A stretch of 64,000 bases of DNA from assembly GCA_034659215.1 (NCBI GenBank), contig JAYEGS010000244.1:12659-76658 (forward strand), written 5' to 3'. Positions 21,487 to 58,244 of the stretch are shown piece by piece (the stretch's first letter is position 1; every line of letters starts with the position of its first letter). Under the pieces are notes generated by a model. It worked only from the letters and a program-made list of their open reading frames with translations. It was not told the DNA's origin and made no database searches. The position numbers were made by a program, and so were the translations under genes. The stretch comes from Pseudomonadota bacterium (lineage in GTDB: Bacteria; Desulfobacterota; Anaeroferrophillalia; Anaeroferrophillales; Tharpellaceae).

Positions 21487-23247
21487 CTAGTCTATCTCCA
21501 ATGGCACCAGTGAGCGTTTACGGACATCAAAAAGCCCTTTGTCGGTTAGGCGCAGGAAGGGGAGGCCGGTAAAGGCTAAAGTCTGGTAGTGGAAGAAGGG
21601 GTTGTCAAGTTTTGAGCCGAGAGTGGTTAAAGCCTCGACAATCTGTTCTTCACGGGTTAGAATTTCGCGCAAACCCAGATCTGCCATGATTCCGCCAATC
21701 GGTAGCGGGAGTTCGGCCAGGATCCGGCTTTTCTCAACCACAACAATTCCACCCTTTATTTCAAGCAGGCGATTAAAGGCGCATGCCATCTCCTCCTCGT
21801 TACAGCCGATGACGGTTGGCTGATAACATTCCCAGTTTAATGTCGAAGCCCAGGCCCCACGTTGGATTCCGGTACCGGCGAGAAAACCGCGAGCGATGCG
21901 CTTGCTGCCGTAACGGTCAAACACGACATATTTAATTATGTCTTGAAGCGGGTCGGCGAGAATATTGCCCTGTTCGATTTTCAGGGTTGGGGTTACTTCG
22001 TGGGTCACCATACTGCCGATTTCCGGTTTGATCGCCCGCACCTTGACCTGGTTACTTTTGGCTGTCGGATAGAGAAAGGTTGCCGCCGTAACCGGTTTTA
22101 AGGGGAGCGAGTTGTACGCCGCCGGCGGGTAACTGTAAGGCGTGTAACTTGCGGTATTTTTTAATTCGCCCTGGTCGGCGCGAACCTCTCCTCGGCAGAG
22201 AACCACCCGTGGCGTAAATTTTTCCAGTTGCGGGACAATCAGAATGTCGGCCCGCCGCCCCGGTGCCAGAGCCCCAATATCCTGGCGCTGAAAGGCTTCG
22301 GCGGCATTTAAGGTCAGCATCTGAACCACCGTAAGTGGATCGAAACCTAAACTTACCGCCTTTTGTCCCAAGCTGTCGAGATGGCCTTCGTTAAGCAACC
22401 ATGAAGGGGTGACGCCGTCGGTTGAGATGCTCATCCGGCGGCTTTCCCGGGTCAGCTCTTTTACCGGGGCAACCCCGGCGAGATCACGGCGGATGCTGCC
22501 TTCTCGGATCATCAGATGGAGGCCGAGACGCAGGCGGTCAAGGGCTTGTTCGGGATTGATCGGTTCATGGCAGGAGCTGATACCGGCGGCGACAAAGGCG
22601 TTGAGTTGCGCTTCTTTGGCTCCGGCCGAATGGCCTTGAACCGGTTTATTGTAGTGGTGGGCCAGAGCGAGAAGTTCTAAAGTGCGCTCATCGGCCGCTA
22701 AAATATCGGGCCAGTAGGCTTCGCCGATTCCGGCAATTTTTTTATTTTGAAAAAGTTCTTCGTACTCGGTCAAAGATATCGCGTAAGTGCTCTCAAAATC
22801 GGGATAGGTGGGAGAGAAGCAGGGGGCCGTGAAATTGAGATCTAAGGGCAGGCCGGCCGCCTCTTCCAGGAGCCAGCTTAAACCACGGCGTCCGAGACTA
22901 TTGCCGAGTTCGGTCGCTTCACTGAAAACCGTGGTCGTCCCATGCGGCAGAACTGCGGCGCAGAAATCGTGCAGACGAAAAACGTTGGCGATGTGGGTGT
23001 GGGTCTCGATGTAGCCGGGTAGGACAAAATCTCCTCTGGCATCAATGATTATGGTCTCCGGCCCGAGAGCCCCTGGGGGCAGTGTGCCGATACTGGCGAT
23101 TTTTCCATTACTGACCGTAATCGTGCTTTGCGGTTGAATCTCGGTGGTAAAAACATTTACCAGATTGGCATTGACAACGGCCAAGTCAGCCGCCTGTCGG
23201 CCCAGAGCCGTAGCGATCAGTTTTTTGGTTGTTTCGGTATCTTGCAT
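21487..23247 (-). CDS. ade: adenine deaminase (amidohydrolase superfamily)
   Basis: GYIETHTHI, HGTTTVFSEA and the ~586 aa length match the adenine deaminase family layout. Confidence 0.7.
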   Translation of the reverse strand: MQDTETTKKLIATALGRQAADLAVVNANLVNVFTTEIQPQSTITVSNGKIASIGTLPPGALGPETIIIDARGDFVLPGYIETHTHIANVFRLHDFCAAVLPHGTTTVFSEATELGNSLGRRGLSWLLEEAAGLPLDLNFTAPCFSPTYPDFESTYAISLTEYEELFQNKKIAGIGEAYWPDILAADERTLELLALAHHYNKPVQGHSAGAKEAQLNAFVAAGISSCHEPINPEQALDRLRLGLHLMIREGSIRRDLAGVAPVKELTRESRRMSISTDGVTPSWLLNEGHLDSLGQKAVSLGFDPLTVVQMLTLNAAEAFQRQDIGALAPGRRADILIVPQLEKFTPRVVLCRGEVRADQGELKNTASYTPYSYPPAAYNSLPLKPVTAATFLYPTAKSNQVKVRAIKPEIGSMVTHEVTPTLKIEQGNILADPLQDIIKYVVFDRYGSKRIARGFLAGTGIQRGAWASTLNWECYQPTVIGCNEEEMACAFNRLLEIKGGIVVVEKSRILAELPLPIGGIMADLGLREILTREEQIVEALTTLGSKLDNPFFHYQTLAFTGLPFLRLTDKGLFDVRKRSLVPLEID

Positions 23248-23331
23248 ATTTGTTCTCTTTTATCTTTGTGTTAGCACTAAATGAGAAATAACACAGAAAA
23301 ACCCCGCTGGCAACCATCTATCATTTTTATG

Positions 23332-23360
23332 TTGACAAAGATAATCTTGTTTAGTATGAA
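23332..23360 (+). promoter_or_regulatory. candidate sigma70 promoter for rubrerythrin (TTGACA-17-TATGAA)
   Basis: TTGACA at 23332..23337, a 17-nt spacer, then TATGAA. An imperfect palindrome TTAATGATCAAATTAA follows at 23388..23405 and may be an operator. Confidence 0.35.
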
Positions 23361-23423
23361 TTTGGCATGATTTACAGACGATACTATTTTTAATGATCAA
23401 ATTAATTTGTAAAGGAGATGATA

Positions 23424-23927
23424 ATGGGAAAGACACTGGAAAATTTACAGGCGGCATTTGCCGGAGAGAGTCAGGCCAATCGTAAATATCTTGCTTATGC
23501 GACCAAGGCTGATGCCGATGGTTTTTCACAGATTGCCAAGCTCTTTCGGGCTGCGGCCGCCGCTGAGACGGTGCATGCTCTTGGTCATTTCAAAGCGATG
23601 GACGGGGTTAGTGATACGGGTGCCAATTTGCGTGATGCGGTGGCTGGTGAAAGCCATGAGTTTAAGAATATGTATCCCGAATTTATCGCGACCGCCAAAG
23701 AAGAGGGTAACAAAAAAGCTTTGCGGATGTTTGAGTGGGCCAATACGGTTGAAGAGATTCACTTTGGTCTCTACGAGGAAGCATTGGCTACCTACGAGAA
23801 GGGTGGTGATTTGCCGGCAGATGATATTTGGGTTTGCAGCGTCTGCGGTAATACTGAGAGTGGTGATTGTCCGGACAAATGTAGCGTCTGCGGCGTTCCG
23901 GGGAGCAAGTTTAACAAAATTGACTGA
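23424..23927 (+). CDS. rbr: rubrerythrin
   Basis: N-terminal ferritin-like diiron motifs (E..ANRKYL, ...E..H). C-terminal rubredoxin-like CSVCGN...CSVCG. The ATG at 23424 sits 6 nt after AAAGGAG. Confidence 0.85.
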   Translation: MGKTLENLQAAFAGESQANRKYLAYATKADADGFSQIAKLFRAAAAAETVHALGHFKAMDGVSDTGANLRDAVAGESHEFKNMYPEFIATAKEEGNKKALRMFEWANTVEEIHFGLYEEALATYEKGGDLPADDIWVCSVCGNTESGDCPDKCSVCGVPGSKFNKID

Positions 23928-23957
23928 TTGGTTATAGGTCTATGAAAGTTATTTTTT

Positions 23958-23996
23958 AAAAAAGAGGGGGTGCTTACTGGCCCCCTCTTTTTTGTG
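23958..23996 (+). terminator. rho-independent terminator after rubrerythrin
   Basis: AAAAAAGAGGGGGTGCTTACTGGCCCCCTCTTTTTTG: a GC stem of 8-9 bp followed by a T-run. Confidence 0.7.
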
Positions 23997-24048
23997 CGAG
24001 ACATATGGGGGGGAAGTCATGAATGGTGAGCTGAAAAAAACTGGAAAT

Positions 24049-24807
24049 ATGCGGCTACGTTTGTTGGTGGCCCTTGGGGTTTTGGCACTCTCTTTTATCT
24101 TAAGCGGCAACCTCTTTGCCGGTAACAGTTTAATGGAGAGTGGCAAAAGTCTGCTTAACCAATTTGGTAAGTCGTCGGTTTCCGGGAAGACATTTGGTGG
24201 GCTCTCCGAGACAGAAATCGGGGCGGGATTGAAAGACGCTTTACGGGTGGGGAGTGAGACGGTGGTCGCACAACTCGGAAAAACGGATGGTTTTAATGCC
24301 GATTCGTTGATTCATATTCCGCTCCCGGAAAAACTTCAAACAGTGAAAAACGCGTTGGCGAAAGTCGGTTTATCGGATATGCTCGACGATCTTGAGTTGA
24401 AACTCAACCGGGCCGCCGAAGCGGCCACCCCGAAGGCCAAGGAACTGTTCGGCAATGCAATTGCCGAGATGTCTATAGATGATGTCCAGGCTATCTATTC
24501 CGGGCCGGAAGATGCCGCAACCCAATATTTTCGCAGCAAAATGACTCCGGAGTTGACCCGGGAGATGGTACCGGTGGTCGAAGAGAGTTTGTCTCAAGTG
24601 GGTGCGATTAAAGCCTATGATGAGGTGATGGGTCAGTATAAAAATATTCCCTTCATGCCCGACATTAAAGAGGATTTGAACGGCTATGTTGTTGAGAAAG
24701 GGATGGATGGAATTTTTTATTACCTGGCCCGCGAAGAGGCGGCGATTCGCTCTGACCCATTAAAACAGTCGACTGCGCTTCTTAAACGTCTCTTCGGGAG
24801 CCGGTAA
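24049..24807 (+). CDS. secreted DUF4197-like protein
   Basis: Signal peptide MRLRLLVALGVLALSFILSGNLFAG. The start is moved to 24049 because the ORF-track start overlaps the terminator hairpin. Confidence 0.5.
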   Translation: MRLRLLVALGVLALSFILSGNLFAGNSLMESGKSLLNQFGKSSVSGKTFGGLSETEIGAGLKDALRVGSETVVAQLGKTDGFNADSLIHIPLPEKLQTVKNALAKVGLSDMLDDLELKLNRAAEAATPKAKELFGNAIAEMSIDDVQAIYSGPEDAATQYFRSKMTPELTREMVPVVEESLSQVGAIKAYDEVMGQYKNIPFMPDIKEDLNGYVVEKGMDGIFYYLAREEAAIRSDPLKQSTALLKRLFGSR

Positions 24808-24861
24808 TATTTTCAGTAACTTTCAGCGTAATTAGAGAAGCTCTATGTATTGATAAAATTG

Positions 24862-24962
24862 ACTGATTTTCATATATCTCAGTTTCCTCATATCTTGCCC
24901 GGCGTATAGAGATAATTCTGGTGTTTTCACTGTGATACGTGATGACGGCTCGACAGCCTGTT
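24862..24962 (-). pseudogene. remnant of a brnT-brnA junction (BrnT C-terminal ~30 codons plus brnA start)
   Basis: About 100 bp are ~85% identical to 57440..57560. The encoded ...ITYHSENTRIISIRRARYEETEIYEN parallels ...ITYRGENTRIISVRRARYEEIKIYES. Confidence 0.6.
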
Positions 24963-25248
24963 GGCTCTGCCCTGACATAGTTACATAATAGAAGACCGGG
25001 AAGAGATTTTTCCCCGGTCTTCTCCATCCTTGATTACCATTTCCCCCTCCCCTGTTTTCATCTCAGTTTTTCTGATACCATCAAATTTGTTTTAATGCTG
25101 TAGGTTATTTCGGGCTCACTATTGACATACTGAAATAATCAAGTATAATAGTTCACATACAGTAATGAATGTCATTCATTTTTAGAAATACAAAAATAAT
25201 CGTCGATCATTGTCTTTCCACCTGTTCATTAGTCGAGGAGGTATTTTG

Positions 25249-26565
25249 ATGAAGACTGCAATAAAAGATCGCGCAATAACTGTAGTGCTGGCCGGCATAG
25301 GAATTAATTTGGCCTTGGGTATTCTTTATACCTGGAGTATCTTTAAAGGGGCAATTAAAGATTCAATAGTTAAAGGAGGGTCAACGGCTTTTGATTGGGA
25401 CATTGCTTCTCTCAACGATCCCTATGCCGTTTGTTGTTTGGTTTTTGCTTTTGTCATGATTCTGGCCGGTAAAATTCAGGATAGATTTGGACCACGGTTT
25501 ACGGCAACCATTGGTGGTCTATTGGTCGGCATAGGCTTTATCTGGGTGTCTCAGACAACGCAGTATGTTAGTTGGATTCTCGGGTTTGGTATCCTTGTTG
25601 GTGCGGGGATAGCTTTTGGTTACTCTTCAACTACTCCGGCGGCCATGAAATGGTATCCCCCAGATAAAATCGGCAAGGTAGCCGGAGTCGTAGTTGCAGG
25701 ATTTGGTTTAGCCTCAGTTTATATTGCACCCTTGGCTGACTACCTTCTCAATCACTGGGGATTACAGAAGGCCATGCTATTTTTTGGTATTGCTTTCATT
25801 TTAGTTGTGACTCTTCTGGCCACGTTTTTAGTGAATCCCCCTAAAGGTTTTAGTTGCCGCCGGGAAAGCGCCAATAAATATTACCGGACAAAAGTTGTTG
25901 GCAAAGAAGTGCCGCCACTGGAGATGATCAAAACCCCGGTTTTTTGGATGCTTTGGTTGCTGTATTTTGTCGGGGCTGGGGCCGGGCTGATGGTTATCGG
26001 TAGTGTGGCTGGTATGGCTAAGAATAGTTTGGGAACTAATGCTTTTCTGGCGGTGGCGATGCTGGCTGTCGGCAACGCGGCAGGAAGGGTAGTCGCGGGC
26101 ATTCTTTCCGATAAAATTGGTCGCAGAAAAACCCTCGGCCTTATGTTGTCTTTTCAGGCGGTGCTCATGTTTCTGGCCATTCCGGTTATTGGAAACAGTG
26201 ATTCAAATCCCTTCCTACTCGTGCTGCTGACCACCTTTATCGGATTTAATTATGGGTCAAATCTGGCTATTTTCCCCTCTTTCACCAAGAATCTTTGGGG
26301 GCTGAAAAATTTTGGTGTGAACTATGGTATTCTCTTTACCTCTTGGGGCGTTGGTGGCTTTGTGATGAGTCGGGTTTCTCAGGTTCTGATGAGTAAAACC
26401 GGCAGTTATGAGTCGTCATTTATTGCTGCCGGGCTGCTGCTGATAGCTGGTATAATCATGACGATATTGATAAAAAATAAGAAAGGTGAGGCTCGAAAAA
26501 AAGTACAGAGACCGGACAAGGCTACGGCAACTGGAGTTGTTCCCGTTTTGCGCTACAATAAATAG
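25249..26565 (+). CDS. MFS transporter (oxalate/formate antiporter-like)
   Basis: 12 predicted TM segments with the MFS loop motif GKIQDRFGPR. GGAGG lies 9 nt before the ATG at 25249. Confidence 0.7.
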   Translation: MKTAIKDRAITVVLAGIGINLALGILYTWSIFKGAIKDSIVKGGSTAFDWDIASLNDPYAVCCLVFAFVMILAGKIQDRFGPRFTATIGGLLVGIGFIWVSQTTQYVSWILGFGILVGAGIAFGYSSTTPAAMKWYPPDKIGKVAGVVVAGFGLASVYIAPLADYLLNHWGLQKAMLFFGIAFILVVTLLATFLVNPPKGFSCRRESANKYYRTKVVGKEVPPLEMIKTPVFWMLWLLYFVGAGAGLMVIGSVAGMAKNSLGTNAFLAVAMLAVGNAAGRVVAGILSDKIGRRKTLGLMLSFQAVLMFLAIPVIGNSDSNPFLLVLLTTFIGFNYGSNLAIFPSFTKNLWGLKNFGVNYGILFTSWGVGGFVMSRVSQVLMSKTGSYESSFIAAGLLLIAGIIMTILIKNKKGEARKKVQRPDKATATGVVPVLRYNK

Positions 26566-26655
26566 TGCGCGGCCGAAAACCGCCAATTTCCTCGATTGCG
26601 GCGACCATCGGGAGTGCCGGCAGTGCGTTAGGCTCAAATTTTAATCCTCAAAATA

Positions 26656-26691
26656 CTTAATCACAGGGTCAGTTCTGACCCTGTGATTAAG
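26656..26691. repeat. perfect 17-bp palindrome CTTAATCACAGGGTCAG-TT-CTGACCCTGTGATTAAG
   Basis: Read directly from the sequence. No T-tract follows on either strand. Confidence 0.8.
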
Positions 26692-26699
26692 TTTCTCGC

Positions 26700-26770
26700 T
26701 ATCCTTGCATGCCCGACGTTAAAGAGGATTTGAACGGCTATGTTGTTGAGAAGGGAATGGATGGAATTTT
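26700..26770 (+). repeat. ~70-bp duplicate of the 3' part of the DUF4197 gene (copy of 24655..24727)
   Basis: CCCGACGTTAAAGAGGATTTGAACGGCTATGTTGTTGAGAAGGGAATGGATGGAATTTTTAT matches 24658..24722, then diverges. Confidence 0.75.
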
Positions 26771-26779
26771 TATTGACTG

Positions 26780-27427
26780 CTATCTGGAACTGGGGAAGGC
26801 GGGCATATTTCCGCCTTCCGACATCCCCTGCATATTGCCCATTCCCTCCATGCCGGGAATTTGGGGCATAGCAAATTTCCGGTAGCCGGATGGGATTTGA
26901 AAGAGATGATCCGGCTGTTTACCGGTGTTGATGTTGCGGTAGTTGACTTCGGTTTCAGGGGTAAGGATACGAATGGCCATTCCCTCTTTTACCGCAATCC
27001 AGTAGGTTATTGTTTCACCTTCATCAGTGATCTCATATTTATCACATTTAATCCCGTTTACGGTTTCACGGCCCAGCTTTTTCCCCTCTTTTTCCAGTAG
27101 CGGTTTCCAGTTGTCGGGCATGATTTCATCATCATCATCATCCAAATCAATAGCCATCTCAAGATAACTTTTCCCTTGCGGCATCAAAGTCCAGACGACG
27201 CCTTTGTCGGGGCGGCTGATCAAAATTATCTCGCGGCCCCCTTGATTCATCTCATTGCGGCTCTGATTACCCTTTATAAAAAACTTGCCTTTGGCAACGA
27301 CATGTCCTTGTGAACGGGTCTCCATCTCCGCACTGTACTCCGCCGCCTGCAGAGAGGACAGAAAGCCGAGGCTGATAATGAAAACGATGGTTAGCGCAAT
27401 GCTTAAGCCTGTTTTTTTCAAGTTCAT
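26780..27427 (-). CDS. periplasmic/secreted hypothetical protein
   Basis: Signal peptide MNLKKTGLSIALTIVFIISLGFLSSLQAAEY. There is an acidic DDDDDE stretch and a Met/Gly-rich C-terminus. Confidence 0.45.
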   Translation of the reverse strand: MNLKKTGLSIALTIVFIISLGFLSSLQAAEYSAEMETRSQGHVVAKGKFFIKGNQSRNEMNQGGREIILISRPDKGVVWTLMPQGKSYLEMAIDLDDDDDEIMPDNWKPLLEKEGKKLGRETVNGIKCDKYEITDEGETITYWIAVKEGMAIRILTPETEVNYRNINTGKQPDHLFQIPSGYRKFAMPQIPGMEGMGNMQGMSEGGNMPAFPSSR

Positions 27428-27454
27428 GATAGTTCCTCCATTTGATGTTGAATA

Positions 27455-27730
27455 ATTATAATGTCACTTTGTAACTATTCTGCTAACCCGAAAATTCAGG
27501 GGACATATATCAATATATGTTACATCGTAACTATTCAGCGTAATGTACTCTTCAAACTATCTCGATACGGGGACATTGCTCCAGGCGGCGGCTGCTAAGC
27601 CTTTATGCCGGTCTGAGCTGCGCTGTGAGCGAAGCGAGGAAGTACTCTTGGGGTGTGTCCCCCTCGAAGCCGGGCGAAGCCAATGTTCGCACCATTTGCA
27701 GTGGCTTTAAGGTAATCACGCTGAATAGTT
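27455..27730. repeat. MITE-like element, family A core flanked by 15-nt TIRs GTAACTATTCAGCGT / ACGCTGAATAGTTAC
   Basis: Left TIR at 27527..27541 and right TIR, its exact reverse complement, at 27711..27725. An extra partial left end is at 27463..27480. The core is shared with 41021.., 46036.. and 57985... Confidence 0.65.
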
Positions 27731-28766
27731 ACGTCACTTTTTCTAGCAACTTTTCCAATTCCTTTACCCGTTTTTCGAGATTTGCCAGACGTCCGCGATC
27801 TTTGGGCAGGTGGGTGGCGGCCATCATCTGGCGCAGGGCTTGTTTGACCGGAATTGCCGGAATGCCGCCGTAATCTTGATCTCCGGGAAGAGATTTGGCC
27901 GCTGAGGTGCCGCCCATCAGGCGGGCCCGGTCGCCGATTGTTATATGGTCGACCATGCCGACCCTGGGGCCCAGCATCACCTGATTGCCGATCCGGACAC
28001 TGCCGGAGATGCCGACCTGGGCGCACATGATTCCTTCATGACCAACTTTAACCCCGTGGCCTAAGTGGACGTGGTCGTCGATTTTGGTGCCGCGGCCGAC
28101 GACGGTTTCATCCATCGCTGCCCGATTGACGGTCGAGAGAGCGCCAATTTCGACATCATCTTCAATAATGACCCGGCCGATCTGGGGGATTTTAACATTG
28201 CAGCCGCCAACCTGAAAAAAACCGAAACCATCCGAGCCGATGACCGAATTTGGATGAATCATGACCCGGTCGCCAAGACAACAATTTTCGCGAATCACGA
28301 CTCCGGGATAGAGGTGGCAATCGGAACCGATTTTTACCCTTCTGCCGATGTAGGTGTTGGCATAGATACGACAGTTATCACCGATAACCGCATCATCGCA
28401 GATAACCGCTCCGGGTCCGATATGCAGGTTATCACCCAAGGAGACATTCTCACCGATAGCTGCCGTTTGATCAATTCGGTAATCGACCATCTGGGCGGCT
28501 TTGTCGATCTCCATCATTATAAGACCCGCGGCCCGGAAGGGCTGGTCACAGATAATCAGGGCTTGTGGTAGATTCTCTACTTTTCTGGGAACGAGCAAAG
28601 CTCCGGCTTTTGAGGCGGCAGCTTTTTCGAGAAATTTCTCTTCGGCAAAGGAGAGTTCATCAACTGAAGCCGCCTCCAGACTGTTGATACCGGTCACCAC
28701 CAGATTTTCATCCCCGACAACCTCACCACCAACCTTGTCGGCAATTTGAGCAAGAGTGTAACGCAT
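27729..28766 (-). CDS. lpxD: UDP-3-O-acylglucosamine N-acyltransferase
   Basis: Typical LpxD N-terminus (MRYTLAQIADKVGGEVVGDENLVVTGI), hexapeptide repeats throughout, and a coiled-coil C-terminus. Confidence 0.8.
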   Translation of the reverse strand: MRYTLAQIADKVGGEVVGDENLVVTGINSLEAASVDELSFAEEKFLEKAAASKAGALLVPRKVENLPQALIICDQPFRAAGLIMMEIDKAAQMVDYRIDQTAAIGENVSLGDNLHIGPGAVICDDAVIGDNCRIYANTYIGRRVKIGSDCHLYPGVVIRENCCLGDRVMIHPNSVIGSDGFGFFQVGGCNVKIPQIGRVIIEDDVEIGALSTVNRAAMDETVVGRGTKIDDHVHLGHGVKVGHEGIMCAQVGISGSVRIGNQVMLGPRVGMVDHITIGDRARLMGGTSAAKSLPGDQDYGGIPAIPVKQALRQMMAATHLPKDRGRLANLEKRVKELEKLLEKVT

Positions 28767-28890
28767 TCATGAGTCCTTTATTTTTGTTTTTGCAGGGAAA
28801 TTAAGCCTTCCCGGTTGACTTTAAACAAGTTAACACATATAGAATAAATCTTCTAGAATAAAGATTGTTAGTTTTTTATCAGGAGAGAAG

Positions 28891-29670
28891 ATGGAGCGGA
28901 AATCGGTTTTTTTACTGGCGGGATTTTTGTTGGTTTTCTGTTTGGGATCGGTGCCGGTTGCGTTTTCGGCATCCCCTTATTCGCGGCAGAAAATTGATGA
29001 GACCGTGAAAGAGACGGTGGTGGTGCAAAAAGAGACCACAACTCTGCAGCAGGCGTGGGAGCAGGAGCGCCGGGAGCTGGATGATTCAACCCACGCCCTG
29101 GAACTTGAGTTCAAACTGCTTGAAGCTCGCCACCTGAAATTGAAAGGTTATTGTCAACAGCGTCGGCAAGAGATTTTAAGACTTGAAACCGGGCTTAATG
29201 ATATGGCTGAAATCGGTATCCGACTGGAGCCCTTTCTCGATGAAATGGTAGGCCGGATTGGAGAATTTACGGCGGCGGATCTGCCCTTTTCTGCGGTCGA
29301 AAGAGAGCGCCGTCTGGCCGATCTGGGTGATGCTTTAAAGAGTTACGATGCCGATCTGGCCGAGAAATTGCGCCGGGTTATGGAGGTGCTTAAAATCGAA
29401 GCCGGTTTTGGCCGGGGTTTTGAGGTCAGTGAGGAGTTTTTGACTCTTGACGGGGCCGAAACCACAGTTAGGATGCTGCGTCTGGGCCGGGTCGGACTCT
29501 ACTATCTCTCACTTGATGGTGATCGGGGGGGCTGGTTTAATCGTGTAAGCAAGAGTTGGGAACCCTTGTCTGGAGCCTCGCACGATGCGGTTAAAGATGC
29601 TTTGCGCATGACCCTTAAACAGCGAGCTTTCGATCTTGTCTGTTTGCCGGTGGTCGGGGGGCAGCCATGA
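28891..29670 (+). CDS. DUF3450-like periplasmic coiled-coil protein (TonB2-system associated, TtpB-like)
   Basis: Signal peptide then coiled-coil. It sits immediately upstream of a TtpC-like/ExbB/ExbD/TonB set, as in TonB2 systems. Confidence 0.5.
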   Translation: MERKSVFLLAGFLLVFCLGSVPVAFSASPYSRQKIDETVKETVVVQKETTTLQQAWEQERRELDDSTHALELEFKLLEARHLKLKGYCQQRRQEILRLETGLNDMAEIGIRLEPFLDEMVGRIGEFTAADLPFSAVERERRLADLGDALKSYDADLAEKLRRVMEVLKIEAGFGRGFEVSEEFLTLDGAETTVRMLRLGRVGLYYLSLDGDRGGWFNRVSKSWEPLSGASHDAVKDALRMTLKQRAFDLVCLPVVGGQP

Positions 29671-37254: not shown

Positions 37255-37400
37255 CGTTTTAAATGCGTATTCGGGCGTATTCCGCGTGGTATTCGAGGTA
37301 TTCCGGGGACACCATACTTAACTATTATTAAATATGGAACAATTATTGTAACTTTTTATCTAACCCGCAAACTCAGGCTACACAATCTCGATTTTCTTCG
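37255..37400. repeat. intergenic repeat modules (D: GTATTC tandem + ATTCCGGGGACACC; B-like TTGTAACT..TAACCCG..TCAGG)
   Basis: D matches 55040..55095 and the reverse complement of 57925..57975. The B-like part matches 27463..27495. Confidence 0.6.
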
Positions 37401-37429
37401 GAGAATCTGTCATAGTGTTGAGTTTTGCT

Positions 37430-41020: not shown

Positions 41021-41235
41021 CACTATCTCGGTGTGGGGTCAGACCTCCAGGCGCCGGCTGTAAGCCGGTTGCCGATCTGAGTTTGCGCCCTGAGCGATAG
41101 CGAGGAAGTGCCCTTGGGGTAACCGTCCTCGAAGCCGGGCGAAGCCAAAATAACAACTTTGCCGCTTTTAACTTAATGCGGTTGGCGCGAACATCACTTT
41201 GCCCTCTTCTAAGGGGTCTGACCTCCAGGCCGAAG
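41021..41235. repeat. repeat family A copy 2 (with internal duplication of the GGGGTCxGACCTCCAGGC head)
   Basis: It shares CTATCTCGGTG.GGGG.CA.ACCTCCAGGC...CTGAGC...TCCTCGAAGCCGGGCGAAGCC with the other A copies. Confidence 0.65.
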
Positions 41236-46038: not shown

Positions 46039-46175
46039 AAATTCGTAACTATTCAGCGTAGTATCGTCTTCAAGCTATCTCGGTGCGGGGACATACCTCC
46101 AGGCCGGGCTTTAGCCCGTGACGAGCTGAGCTGTGTCCCCCTCGAAGTGGGCGAAGCGATGTTCGCATCATTTGT
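46036..46175. repeat. repeat family A copy 3 with left TIR only
   Basis: CGTAACTATTCAGCGTAGTATCGTCTTCAAGCTATCTCGGTGCGGGGACATACCTCCAGGCC... Confidence 0.6.
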
Positions 46176-54854: not shown

Positions 54855-55025
54855 GGTTACTTTCTTCCACTTCTTACGCAAAATTTTTGTTTTTCCAGCG
54901 CTCATTACGCCAAAATTGCGAAACTCACTCGTACCCCGTTCAGACAGTCGCAATTTTTTTGGCTTCTTTCGCTGGGAAAAACGACAAAATTTTGCGAGAC
55001 GTTACAGAAAACAACCCGATATCCC
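54855..55025. repeat. repeat family C copy 2 (long hairpin, covaries with copy 1)
   Basis: CCACTTCTTACGCAAAATTTTTGTTTTTCCAGCGCTCATTACGCCAAAATTGCGA...TCGCAATTTTTTTGGC...CGCTGGGAAAAACGACAAAATTTTGCGAGACGTT. Confidence 0.65.
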
Positions 55026-55039
55026 TAGAATTCATCTAA

Positions 55040-55100
55040 GCAAAGTTACCTCTAATTCCGGGGCTCGGAATTCCGGGGACACCTTACTTATCTTTCACAA
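55040..55100. repeat. repeat module D (tandem AATTCCGGGG(A/C)...) plus a solo TIR fragment at 55153..55170
   Basis: CTAATTCCGGGGCTCGGAATTCCGGGGACACCTTACTTA. GCTGAATAGTTGCG at 55156 resembles the family-B TIR. Confidence 0.55.
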
Positions 55101-56628: not shown

Positions 56629-56859
56629 ATGAAAACTATCTCGTTGAAACTTGATGATTCTATCTTTGGTGAGACCGAAGATATTATTGGCCGGTTGAAA
56701 CAATCCCGCAACCGATATATCAATGAAGCGGTAGATTACTATAACAAAATTCAAAAACGCAAAAAACTGGAGCAGGCATTGCAAAAAGAGTCTTTGGTGG
56801 TTAAAGAAGATTCTATGTCAGTTCTAAAAGAGTTTGAGGTTTTTGAATATGAAAGTTAA
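56629..56859 (+). CDS. antitoxin (RHH/MazE-like) of the MazF-family toxin
   Basis: 76 aa, overlapping the downstream PemK/MazF gene by 26 nt. Confidence 0.5.
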   Translation: MKTISLKLDDSIFGETEDIIGRLKQSRNRYINEAVDYYNKIQKRKKLEQALQKESLVVKEDSMSVLKEFEVFEYES

Positions 56860-57196
56860 ACAATTTGAGATCTGGCTTGCCGATTTAAACCCGCAAACTG
56901 GAACTGAACCCGGTAAAACCAGACCCGTCCTGGTTGTTCAGACAAACTTGCTCAACCAGGTTTCACATCCATCATCCCTGGTTTGCCCCCTGACAACCAA
57001 CATCAAGTTGAAATCTGAAATTTTACGAGTTCATATCGGATCTGAAGGTTCCGGCCTGAAAGAGAAGAGTGACGTAATGATTGATCAGATTCGGGCGATT
57101 GATAATCAGAGGCTTACCCGGAAAATCGGCCATTTACCGGAAGGATTGATAGGTAAATTAAAAGAAAATCTGATGATTATTCTGGATTTGGATTAA
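56834..57196 (+). CDS. mazF: type II toxin, PemK/MazF family endoribonuclease
   Basis: FEIWLADLNPQTGTEPGKTRPVLVVQTN...CPLTT matches the MazF/PemK family pattern. Confidence 0.75.
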   Translation: MRFLNMKVKQFEIWLADLNPQTGTEPGKTRPVLVVQTNLLNQVSHPSSLVCPLTTNIKLKSEILRVHIGSEGSGLKEKSDVMIDQIRAIDNQRLTRKIGHLPEGLIGKLKENLMIILDLD

Positions 57197-57215
57197 AATG
57201 GCATTCAGGTTAACA

Positions 57216-57494
57216 TTACTTGCGGGCAGCGCTTGCGTTGGGTTGAGTCAATTGTGAGGTTTGCTGTAATCTATCTGCAAGCCAGAGCTTGATAATTGAT
57301 TGTCGGGGCACACCGAGTCGCCTGGCTTCTTTATCCAGAGACTGGATCATCCAGAGTGGGAAATCAACATTTACCCTTTTTTGTTCCTGTTTAGGTCTTC
57401 TGGATTTTGCGAGATCAAGTTGTTTGAGAACACTCTTTCCCTCATCAAATTTGTGGTCAAAATCTTCAGCTTTCATATATTTTAATCTCCTCAT
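57216..57494 (-). CDS. brnA: BrnA-type antitoxin
   Basis: NVDFPLWMIQSLDKEARRLGVPRQSIIKLWL resembles the BrnA C-terminus. Overlaps the brnT stop by 29 nt. Confidence 0.6.
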   Translation of the reverse strand: MRRLKYMKAEDFDHKFDEGKSVLKQLDLAKSRRPKQEQKRVNVDFPLWMIQSLDKEARRLGVPRQSIIKLWLADRLQQTSQLTQPNASAARK

Positions 57495-57840
57495 ATCTTG
57501 CCCGGCGTACAGAGATAATTCTGGTGTTTTCTCCGCGATACGTGATGATACCTGACCAGTGTTTTTCAGCTATCTTGCCAACAACTAAAAACCTCTCTTC
57601 GTCTGTTGTTCTGGCCGGGATCTCCAATAGGTAGGAATCTTCCCAGAGTGCCTGGGCCTCAATAAAATCAATTCCATGTTTCTTTTTGTTGATGTATGAT
57701 TTGGAGGGGTCGAATTCGAATTTCATAGTATAATTATTATACCTAATAGATGTATTATTGTCAATAGTTTGAAGTTGAAGAAGGGGCAGGTCTTGAAATA
57801 GTTGGCGGTTGTAAGGTTCGCGTAAAGCCAGAACTTTCAC
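57466..57840 (-). CDS. brnT: BrnT-type ribonuclease toxin (DUF497)
   Basis: FEFDPSKSYINKKKHGIDFIEAQALWED...RIISVRRA matches the BrnT family. Confidence 0.6.
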   Translation of the reverse strand: MKVLALREPYNRQLFQDLPLLQLQTIDNNTSIRYNNYTMKFEFDPSKSYINKKKHGIDFIEAQALWEDSYLLEIPARTTDEERFLVVGKIAEKHWSGIITYRGENTRIISVRRARYEEIKIYES

Positions 57841-58075
57841 CCGCCATTTGTCAAGATGTGACCTCGATAGTGGTCGCGAAGCAAAGTTCGCGGTTGCTCG
57901 CTTCTACCTTTCATGGCAGGTTTTTCTGAGTTAGGTAAGGTGTCCCCGGAATTCGGTGTCCCCGGAATTCGGAAAACTTCACTCTTGCTCGGTGTGGGGA
58001 CAGACCTCCAGGCGCCGGCTGCAAGCCGGTTGCCGCTCTGAGCTCTGTCCCCTTCGAAGCCGGGCGAAGCCCATA
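57782..58075. repeat. composite of repeat modules E (57782..57905), D inverted and tandem (57925..57975) and A copy 4 (57985..58075)
   Basis: Matches 37805.., 55056.. (reverse complement) and 27561.. / 41021.. respectively. Confidence 0.6.
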
Positions 58076-58244
58076 TCAAAACTAACCGGTTTTAACTTAA
58101 CAGTGAGACGTTAACCGGGAATTTTCGATTAATTGATGATCCCCATGAACCCCATTAATTTAAAAAATAAGTTGAAAAATGGTTGGATTATTCGATAAAG
58201 AGGATTATGGTGGAAGAAATGAAATTTCAGGGATTGGGGAAGTT

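Follow-up and report, generated by a model that had tools for sequence, protein, structure and literature searches.

In a 64,000-nt stretch of contig JAYEGS010000244.1 (GenBank assembly GCA_034659215.1; hereafter the window), foreign DNA stands between a DUF4197 gene and a convergent DUF4412 gene, and its last 70 nt are a second copy of a segment of the DUF4197 gene. We consider it reasonably probable that this region is a composite, non-autonomous islet, that its junctions arose and were trimmed through microhomology-mediated illegitimate recombination, and that the second copy of the gene segment (copy B) is a templated or duplicated junction scar, not an attachment (att) site. An earlier note on this DNA had instead seen in the repeat the attL and attR sites of an element that integrated site-specifically into the 3' end of the gene, a reading that is weighed below against genomes in which the site is empty and against other versions of the islet.

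Our repeat search over positions 23000-29000 gave a single long direct repeat, 24648-24717 (copy A, also called x here) versus 26702-26771 (copy B), with 65 of 70 nt identical (93%, 5 mismatches). Its 64-nt core occurs twice in the window when up to 3 mismatches are allowed, and 0 times in 100 shuffles. The duplication of about 70 bp described in the earlier note is hence real, its coordinates having been off by at most 10 nt; the repeated piece does come from the DUF4197 gene, but it is internal to the gene and not its 3' end, as copy A (plus strand) ends about 90 nt before the stop codon. Copy B (plus strand) is non-coding and forms the end of the inserted DNA. It corresponds to the clade consensus of this DUF4197 segment plus one private substitution, and was therefore copied from a resident gene rather than from a distant donor. 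The left edge of copy B meets the tail of the islet at TATCC, which is common to the native sequence ATATCCCC, and its right edge meets the spacer in a T-run, where TTYTATTACCTGG..GAAGAGGCGG, inside the gene, is similar to the TTTATTGACTGCTATCTGG..GAAGGCGG of the spacer and the end of DUF4412.

The genomic site was compared across 80 loci, obtained by a DUF4197 protein scan with one genome per species. Among these, the closest relatives of the window are metagenome-assembled genomes (MAGs) around Candidatus Tharpella aukensis, a member of the candidate phylum Tharpellota that is known from hydrothermal sediments (PMC9213671). In Ca. T. aukensis (locus L002, 89% nucleotide identity), positions 3-1845 align with window 22964-24813 and positions 1844-2506 with window 26767-27444; in this locus, as in L074, L167, L168-171 and L174, the DUF4197 gene is directly followed by the convergent DUF4412 gene. 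This is the uninterrupted arrangement that the earlier note had proposed to look for in related genomes, and relative to it the DNA between the copies is indeed, as had been supposed, a foreign insertion.

The DUF4197 gene of the window (24019..24807, plus strand; Pfam PF13852, 245 bits, profile positions 2-199 of 199), which holds copy A and has orthologues in 80 loci, is intact. The convergent DUF4412 gene (26780..27427, minus strand; Pfam PF14371) is its native neighbour in the empty-site genomes. The empty-site junction of L002 reads TAA-TATTTTTTT-ATTGATTG-CTA. The window splits this spacer into a left half, TATTTT (24808..24813), giving TAA-TATTTT|CAGTAAC..., and a right half, ATTGACTG (26772..26779), giving ...GGAATTTTT|ATTGACTG-CTA. 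Homology to L002 stops at 24813, which puts the left junction at 24813/24814, and the right half, which matches ATTGATTG of L002, stands directly before the DUF4412 stop codon. The insert (24814-~26771, about 1.95 kb) thus begins 6 nt past the DUF4197 stop codon, in an intergenic T-run, and does not interrupt the gene. In Tharpella-type genomes, the native T-rich spacer between the convergent stop codons is about 25 nt long, the distance between these codons ranging from about 4 to about 60 nt in the empty-site genomes. Between copy A and the left junction lie 96 bp of native gene tail (24718-24813), which are not repeated after copy B. Their identity to the empty-site relatives is 94.7-96% (94.7-95.6% to L002), similar to that of the neighboring parts of the gene, and no discontinuity is seen, as far as the few informative sites tell.

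In order, the insert holds the start of a repeat element (RE1), an orphan segment, a brnTA remnant, a second orphan segment with a hairpin, a promoter, a major facilitator superfamily (MFS) transporter gene, a 93-nt unit, a palindrome, GTTTCTCGCTA and copy B. No integrase or transposase open reading frame (ORF) is found in it; it is a decayed islet with no integrase, as the earlier note had supposed.

Protein searches with MFS, DUF4412 and DUF4197 gave further contigs with the islet at the same site. Two of them, L001 (CSMAG_305) and L173 (JGI 3300042086), share with the window both the left junction 24813/24814, which is also present in L172, and the same decayed brnTA remnant. A fuller version consists of two contigs from one metagenome (ZHAN22-2, SAMN18200498), L172 and L164 (to which L165 is equivalent), which possibly belong to one genome. 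In L172, DUF4197 is followed by TAATATTTT, a complete RE1 and an intact brnA gene, 94.5% identical to window 57212-57374; L164 and L165 carry an intact brnT gene with its promoter (92.4% identical to 57542-57766), the MFS promoter and gene, a 31-nt spacer and the palindrome, directly followed by DUF4412. This ZHAN islet, of about 2.5 kb, is likewise devoid of integrase and transposase genes, and copy B is missing from it. In the window, the right junction consists of GTTTCTCGCTATC, 79 nt (CTTGCATG...x...GGAATTTTTATTGACTGCTATC) and TGGAAC; the corresponding sequence in ZHAN is GTTTCTCGCTATCTGGAAC (short form GTTTCTCGCTATCTGG). Since these 79 nt include native spacer, the window form is the older one, and ZHAN has lost x through a deletion from one GCTATC hexamer to the other.

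The islet has moved between lineages. Synonymous divergence (dS) between the window and ZHAN is only 0.062 for the MFS gene, against 0.30 for DUF4197, 0.38 for the rubrerythrin gene, 0.54 for lpxD and 0.72 for DUF4412. Among the window, L173 and ZHAN, islet positions 25044-25852 are 97.5-97.7% identical, whereas the DUF4197 gene of the window is 92% identical to those of L173, L001 and ZHAN, which are 96.4-97.5% identical to one another. The filled genomes of this L173/L001/ZHAN group have the window-type junction GAGCCGGTAATATTTT, and their empty-site relative L174 has GAACCGGTAATTTTTTT. A low dS in the islet beside diverged flanks, together with the shared junction, means that the islet, or at least its transporter block, moved between lineages long after the flanks had diverged. 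As it encodes no enzyme that could move it, the islet has most likely spread among related Tharpella-like lineages by homologous recombination in the flanking genes. When metagenomes were scanned with the MFS protein, no relative exceeded 67% identity and none gave a context for the islet; an exact search for the DUF4197 protein had no hit.

These comparisons speak against attL and attR. Repeats left by integration would abut both ends of the insert, but 96 bp separate copy A, which ends at 24717, from the junction, and only copy B is an insert end. The crossover would be marked by the repeat, but the empty sites hold a single x and the breakpoint lies in the spacer past the stop codon. An integrating element would supply a replacement 3' end for the gene, but the tail at 24718-24813 is not duplicated and diverges as native sequence does, though on few informative sites. 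Neither the window insert nor the fuller ZHAN islet encodes a recombinase. Nor is the site used recurrently: a second partial 3' copy of DUF4197 was found in none of the 80 other DUF4197 loci (flanks of up to 10 kb), and x has no exact match in viral contigs. The closest known likeness is that of phage 21 and e14 in the icd gene of E. coli, where a prophage integrates into the 3' end of a protein gene and brings a replacement 3' end. As in the window, a partial copy of the 3' region of the gene then lies beyond the inserted DNA and the gene stays intact; in icd, however, the duplicated segment reaches the end of the gene, both copies abut the element and an integrase gene lies beside one of the att sites, whereas here copy A is away from the junction, the gene tail is single, the insertion is past the stop codon and even the fuller islet has no integrase.

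Other insertion systems were considered as well. A target-site duplication of a transposon or insertion sequence (IS) was rejected on account of the 70-nt length of the repeat, the lack of terminal inverted repeats at the insert ends and the lack of a transposase. An integron attC site, which is recognized by its R'' (RYYYAAC) and R' (GTTRRRY) boxes, was also rejected, the palindrome having no AAC/GTT boxes; the ends (CGTAAC...GTTACG) of a family of repeats resembling miniature inverted-repeat transposable elements (MITEs) fit at 5 of 7 positions only, as read by eye and not with a structural attC model. Tn7 inserts at attTn7 after glmS, and the islet resembles it in lying a few nucleotides past the stop codon of a conserved gene, in leaving this gene intact and in a possible 5-nt direct repeat; a Tn7-type insertion was nonetheless discarded, since neither tns genes nor Tn7 ends are present and nothing of the kind recurs at other DUF4197 loci.

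What the junctions do show are microhomologies: TATCC to the left of copy B, the T-run/ATT homeology to its right and GCTATC at the ZHAN deletion. The template of copy B has the same orientation and is found 2 kb upstream of it, a distance that shrinks to about 100 bp in the empty site; this is compatible with a filler mechanism and is no proof of it. Homology-facilitated illegitimate recombination in transformable bacteria, alternative end-joining in E. coli, and microhomology-mediated break-induced replication (MMBIR) or template switching are known mechanisms of this kind. The islet is like such cases in its 5-6-nt microhomologies (TATCC, GCTATC, T-run/ATT), its nearby copies in the same orientation, the lack of a dedicated enzyme and the long adjacent palindrome. 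Unlike them, it is read from the sequence of an uncultured organism, and a 70-nt filler is long compared with the bacterial examples known to us.

In the model that we favor, the islet in the T-rich spacer between the convergent DUF4197 and DUF4412 stop codons, built of a truncated repeat element, a decayed brnTA module, an MFS cassette with its own promoter, the 93-nt unit and a terminator-like palindrome, has been trimmed repeatedly by short-homology deletions. Copy B is joined to the islet tail at TATCC on its left and to the native spacer at the T-run/ATT homeology on its right. We infer two possible routes to it: either a one-step templated filler or template switch during the repair of a break beside the long palindrome, or a short-lived duplication that covered x, the tail and the stop codon, as might result if a circle entered in the Campbell manner, and from which 96 bp were then deleted between homeologous patches. 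We favor the filler or template-switch routes, because no version of the islet has a recombinase, because events at 5-6-nt microhomologies do occur in it, and because the two orphan segments, at internal deletion junctions, each contain a 14-nt exact match to a flanking gene in the same orientation: 24855-24868 is identical to 23916-23929, at the 3' end of the rubrerythrin gene, and 24996-25009 to 27883-27896, antisense to lpxD. Matches of that length within ±2.7 kb were reached by 0 of 1000 and 1 of 1000 dinucleotide shuffles, respectively, compared to 655 of 1000 and 868 of 1000 for two control segments. These figures are suggestive only, and the patches may be templated filler. A bolder extension, which we find doubtful, is that three separate rearrangement junctions record templated patchwork repair, where short stretches of 70, 19 and 14-17 nt would derive, as direct-orientation copies, from DUF4197, rubrerythrin and lpxD, all within about 3 kb. 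If this were true, an MMBIR- or template-switch-like process, possibly triggered by the adjacent palindrome with its 18-23-bp arms, would shape the gain and decay of islets in this candidate phylum.

Several points weigh against the microhomology model and the spread proposed with it. The two 14-nt patches are short and were found post hoc; the sequence fits a full duplication of x and tail followed by a 96-bp deletion equally well, and the event that made copy B cannot be replayed. Only the window's own genome shows the right junction with copy B; the contigs of L001 and L173 stop short of it. No clear recombination tract is seen in DUF4412 beside the islet, and the route of its spread is read from dS contrasts and few junction-proximal sites. 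The phylogeny of the window, L001 and L002 is nearly a trichotomy, and neither the gene tree nor the site patterns of DUF4197 have the resolution needed to date the insertion.

Among the alternatives, a Campbell-type integration, either site-specific or mediated by RecA, would give the same final sequence: a circle with a DUF4197 3' region (x, tail, stop codon and T-run) would have entered, duplicating about 166 bp into repeats like attL and attR, after which the right-hand tail would have been deleted between the homeologous TTYTATTAC (at the boundary of x and tail) and TTTATTGAC (in the spacer), any integrase being lost. A patch of homeology does lie at exactly the required deletion end-points, deletions at short homologies occur in the islet, as at GCTATC in ZHAN, and toxin-antitoxin (TA) modules are typical cargo of integrative elements. 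We nevertheless regard this history as unlikely, because no fewer than three events would be required (an integration, the deletion of the tail and the disappearance of the recombinase), because the most complete islet, that of ZHAN, has no room for a recombinase, and because the left-hand tail diverges like native sequence while the left junction keeps 6 nt of native spacer past the stop codon; the lack of a second 3' fragment at other DUF4197 loci and of a viral match to x also count against it. It is quite improbable, in our view, that copy B is instead a flank captured at an earlier site, just upstream of x in some DUF4197 gene, from which the element was remobilized with about 70 nt of neighboring DNA (by one-ended transposition or imprecise excision) before being re-inserted with a 5-bp ATTTT duplication. 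ATTTT is present at both ends of the insert plus x, in TAAT[ATTTT]CAG... and ...GGA[ATTTT]TATTG, and the islet has at its left end the terminal repeat of a family of MITE-like elements, which repeatedly borders on T-runs. Yet x's own sequence also explains the right-hand ATTTT, there is neither a transposase nor a matching right terminal repeat, copy B matches the ancestral x of the clade, so that no foreign earlier site is needed, and ZHAN has no copy B.

Copy B could also have been kept for a function: on the minus strand it would be part of the DUF4412 3' untranslated region, between the stop codon and the palindrome, and with its 93% complementarity to the DUF4197 mRNA it would preserve an antisense link that the overlap of convergent transcripts had supplied before the insertion. 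The short distance between the stop codons in empty sites, from which convergent transcripts probably overlap, and a palindrome that is strong on the minus strand and followed by a U-rich tract would agree with such a role; the ZHAN lineage has however deleted copy B and kept both genes, and the divergence of copy B from the consensus is compatible with neutrality, which makes this explanation highly improbable to us. Finally, as the window comes from a MAG contig, and as the right junction bearing x is seen in no independent contig, a chimeric join made during assembly might be suspected. We give this almost no credence: the five differences between copies A and B argue against an assembly artefact, the left junction is confirmed in three other assemblies, and the adjacency of islet and DUF4412 is confirmed in L164 and L165. 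A Logan contig (L163), 100% identical to the window over 24669-26602, starts where the stretch common to both copies begins, thus breaking exactly at that stretch; it may share reads with the source MAG.

We return to the parts of the islet itself, beginning at its left end. The first 18 nt (24814..24831, plus strand; CAGTAACTTTCAGCGTAA) are the truncated start of RE1, which is complete in ZHAN and was delimited by alignment with L172 2574-2660 and window 27470-27505 and 37346-37410; at these three places, RE1 forms a hairpin with a cUUCGg tetraloop followed by a U-tract and looks like a portable terminator. The first orphan segment, at an internal deletion junction, holds a 19-nt patch (24850..24868, plus strand) with 17 of 19 nt, 14 of them as one exact run, identical to the 3' end of the rubrerythrin gene (23911-23929). 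It is followed on the minus strand by the last ~27 codons of brnT and the first codons of brnA (24868..24958), which match positions 56-77 of 77 of the Pfam BrnT profile below threshold (E 0.019); the brnT-brnA remnant that the earlier note had noticed is accordingly present, with an identity to the intact brnTA of 89.7% over 78 nt (24868-24945 vs 57471-57548) and not the estimated 85%; with only these parts left, it is a non-functional remnant. In the second orphan segment, a GC-rich hairpin (24989..25022) contains the 14-nt match to the lpxD antisense strand; microRNA matches to Rfam on this hairpin were spurious and below the gathering score. A dip in GC content to 0.35-0.43, the only one in the profile, covers the non-coding left part and is not diagnostic.

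The transporter cassette begins with a consensus sigma-70 promoter (25122..25149, plus strand; TTGACA-16-TATAAT, 12 of 12 positions), which is kept upstream of the MFS orthologues in L162 and L164. The MFS gene, which the earlier note had also placed between the copies, is intact (25249..26565, plus strand) and matches the NCBIfam equivalog NF049980 with 399.5 bits (cut-off 320; profile positions 2-378 of 378) as well as Pfam MFS_1; we predict that it encodes an L-lactate transporter of the SfMCT-type family. Promoter and gene form a unit, which is kept in the 83%-identical orthologue of L162, where the downstream sequence is unrelated. Another contig, L161, has a 76%-identical MFS orthologue in a context unrelated to the islet, and downstream of it (L161 2600-2860) a 49-aa ORF resembles, by eye, the C-terminus of an IS200-type transposase.

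Downstream of the transporter gene, a discrete 93-nt unit (26566..26658) is absent from the ZHAN islet. It resembles promoter-proximal stretches of distant Desulfobacula/Desulfobacteria MAGs (L026 9771-9845; L036 314-348 and 4930-4967), to which it is 85-90% identical; these lie on the opposite strand, and three unrelated genes have their start codons 40-60 nt downstream of them. The core TTGAGTATTTYGAGGATTAAAAT lies next to a small inverted repeat, AATAC-N5-GTATT. This unit could be a conserved regulated promoter or operator, or else a small mobile unit. The palindrome that follows (26655..26692), unique in the window, is perfect, as the earlier note had said, but its arms are of 18 nt with a 2-nt spacer and not 17 bp long. 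It has a folding energy of -28.6 kcal/mol, makes up the conserved right-end hairpin of the islet and folds strongly on the minus strand, where a U-rich tract follows, and it is probably a terminator between the convergent genes. In ZHAN, it has a 23-bp stem with a 3-nt spacer and two G-T pairs as read on the plus strand, and two base pairs differ from the window on both sides and still pair (TT/AA in the window, AG/CT in ZHAN). Such paired changes suggest that the hairpin itself is maintained. No Rfam family reaches its gathering score in the window, and neither the 93-nt unit nor the palindrome had any hit. Plasmid and phage searches with the islet DNA gave no match; the palindrome form with a 3-nt spacer, as in ZHAN, had no exact match in viral contigs, a pattern that does not fit the window's own copy with its 2-nt spacer.

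The same TA module occurs a second time in the window, as the earlier note had observed: an intact brnTA at 57216..57726 (minus strand), to which the intact brnTA of the ZHAN islet is 92-94.5% identical. With a BrnT toxin domain (PF04365, 82 bits, positions 1-77 of 77), a BrnA antitoxin domain (NF047399, 117 bits) and two overlapping genes in one operon, it qualifies as a type II BrnTA system. The homology unit that it shares with the ZHAN islet is sharply bounded (57212-57766), as if a cassette of about 555 bp moved. It is one of two TA modules standing back to back at 56629-57726, the other being a PemK/MazF-type toxin gene (56834-57196) with a small upstream ORF, and repeat-rich DNA lies beyond them at 57840-58080. 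Like other small islets that combine a TA module with a metabolic cargo gene and spread by homologous recombination in their flanks, the DUF4197 islet is patchy among close relatives at one chromosomal site, has its TA genes beside the cargo and carries cargo far more similar between lineages than its flanks; it differs from them in being very small (about 2-2.5 kb), in lying in the spacer of convergent genes and in consisting partly of MITE-like repeats.

The MITE-like family has 19-nt terminal inverted repeats (GTAACTATTCAGCGTAAT ... ATCACGCTGAATAGTTAC) and is found at window 27526-27733, 46043-46174, 41045-41148 and 58006-58071, and elsewhere at L166 4300-4440, L175 755-790 and L004 1610-1960. 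The complete copy (208 bp) stands between the DUF4412 and lpxD genes; neither L002 nor ZHAN has it. The ends of the family repeatedly abut T-runs beside stop codons, including the DUF4197/DUF4412 spacer of other genomes: L175 and L166 have MITE-like repeats, not the islet, at the same T-run. In L166 (GCA_034717935.1, 4300-4444), the DUF4197 gene itself is absent, with rubrerythrin and DUF4412 about 140 bp apart and a MITE-like repeat between them; this absence makes DUF4197 dispensable and the spacer a hot spot of rearrangement. Upstream of DUF4197 in L173, positions 1-128 are not rubrerythrin and match a repeat at window 54921-55049, which is either another rearrangement or a chimeric short contig.

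The event described here is of an ordinary kind, unusually well resolved by natural variants, and changes no concept. When foreign DNA is flanked by a long direct repeat of part of a gene, the repeat is not necessarily an att site, and the comparison of empty sites with variant islets can tell the footprint of a recombinase from a junction scar. Relatives of Ca. Tharpella offer a natural series for this, made of an empty site, a fuller islet and decayed islets, in which an islet with a predicted lactate transporter and a TA module, and with no recombinase, was gained, exchanged between lineages (dS of 0.06 vs 0.3-0.7) and whittled down by deletions at microhomologies of 5-6 nt.

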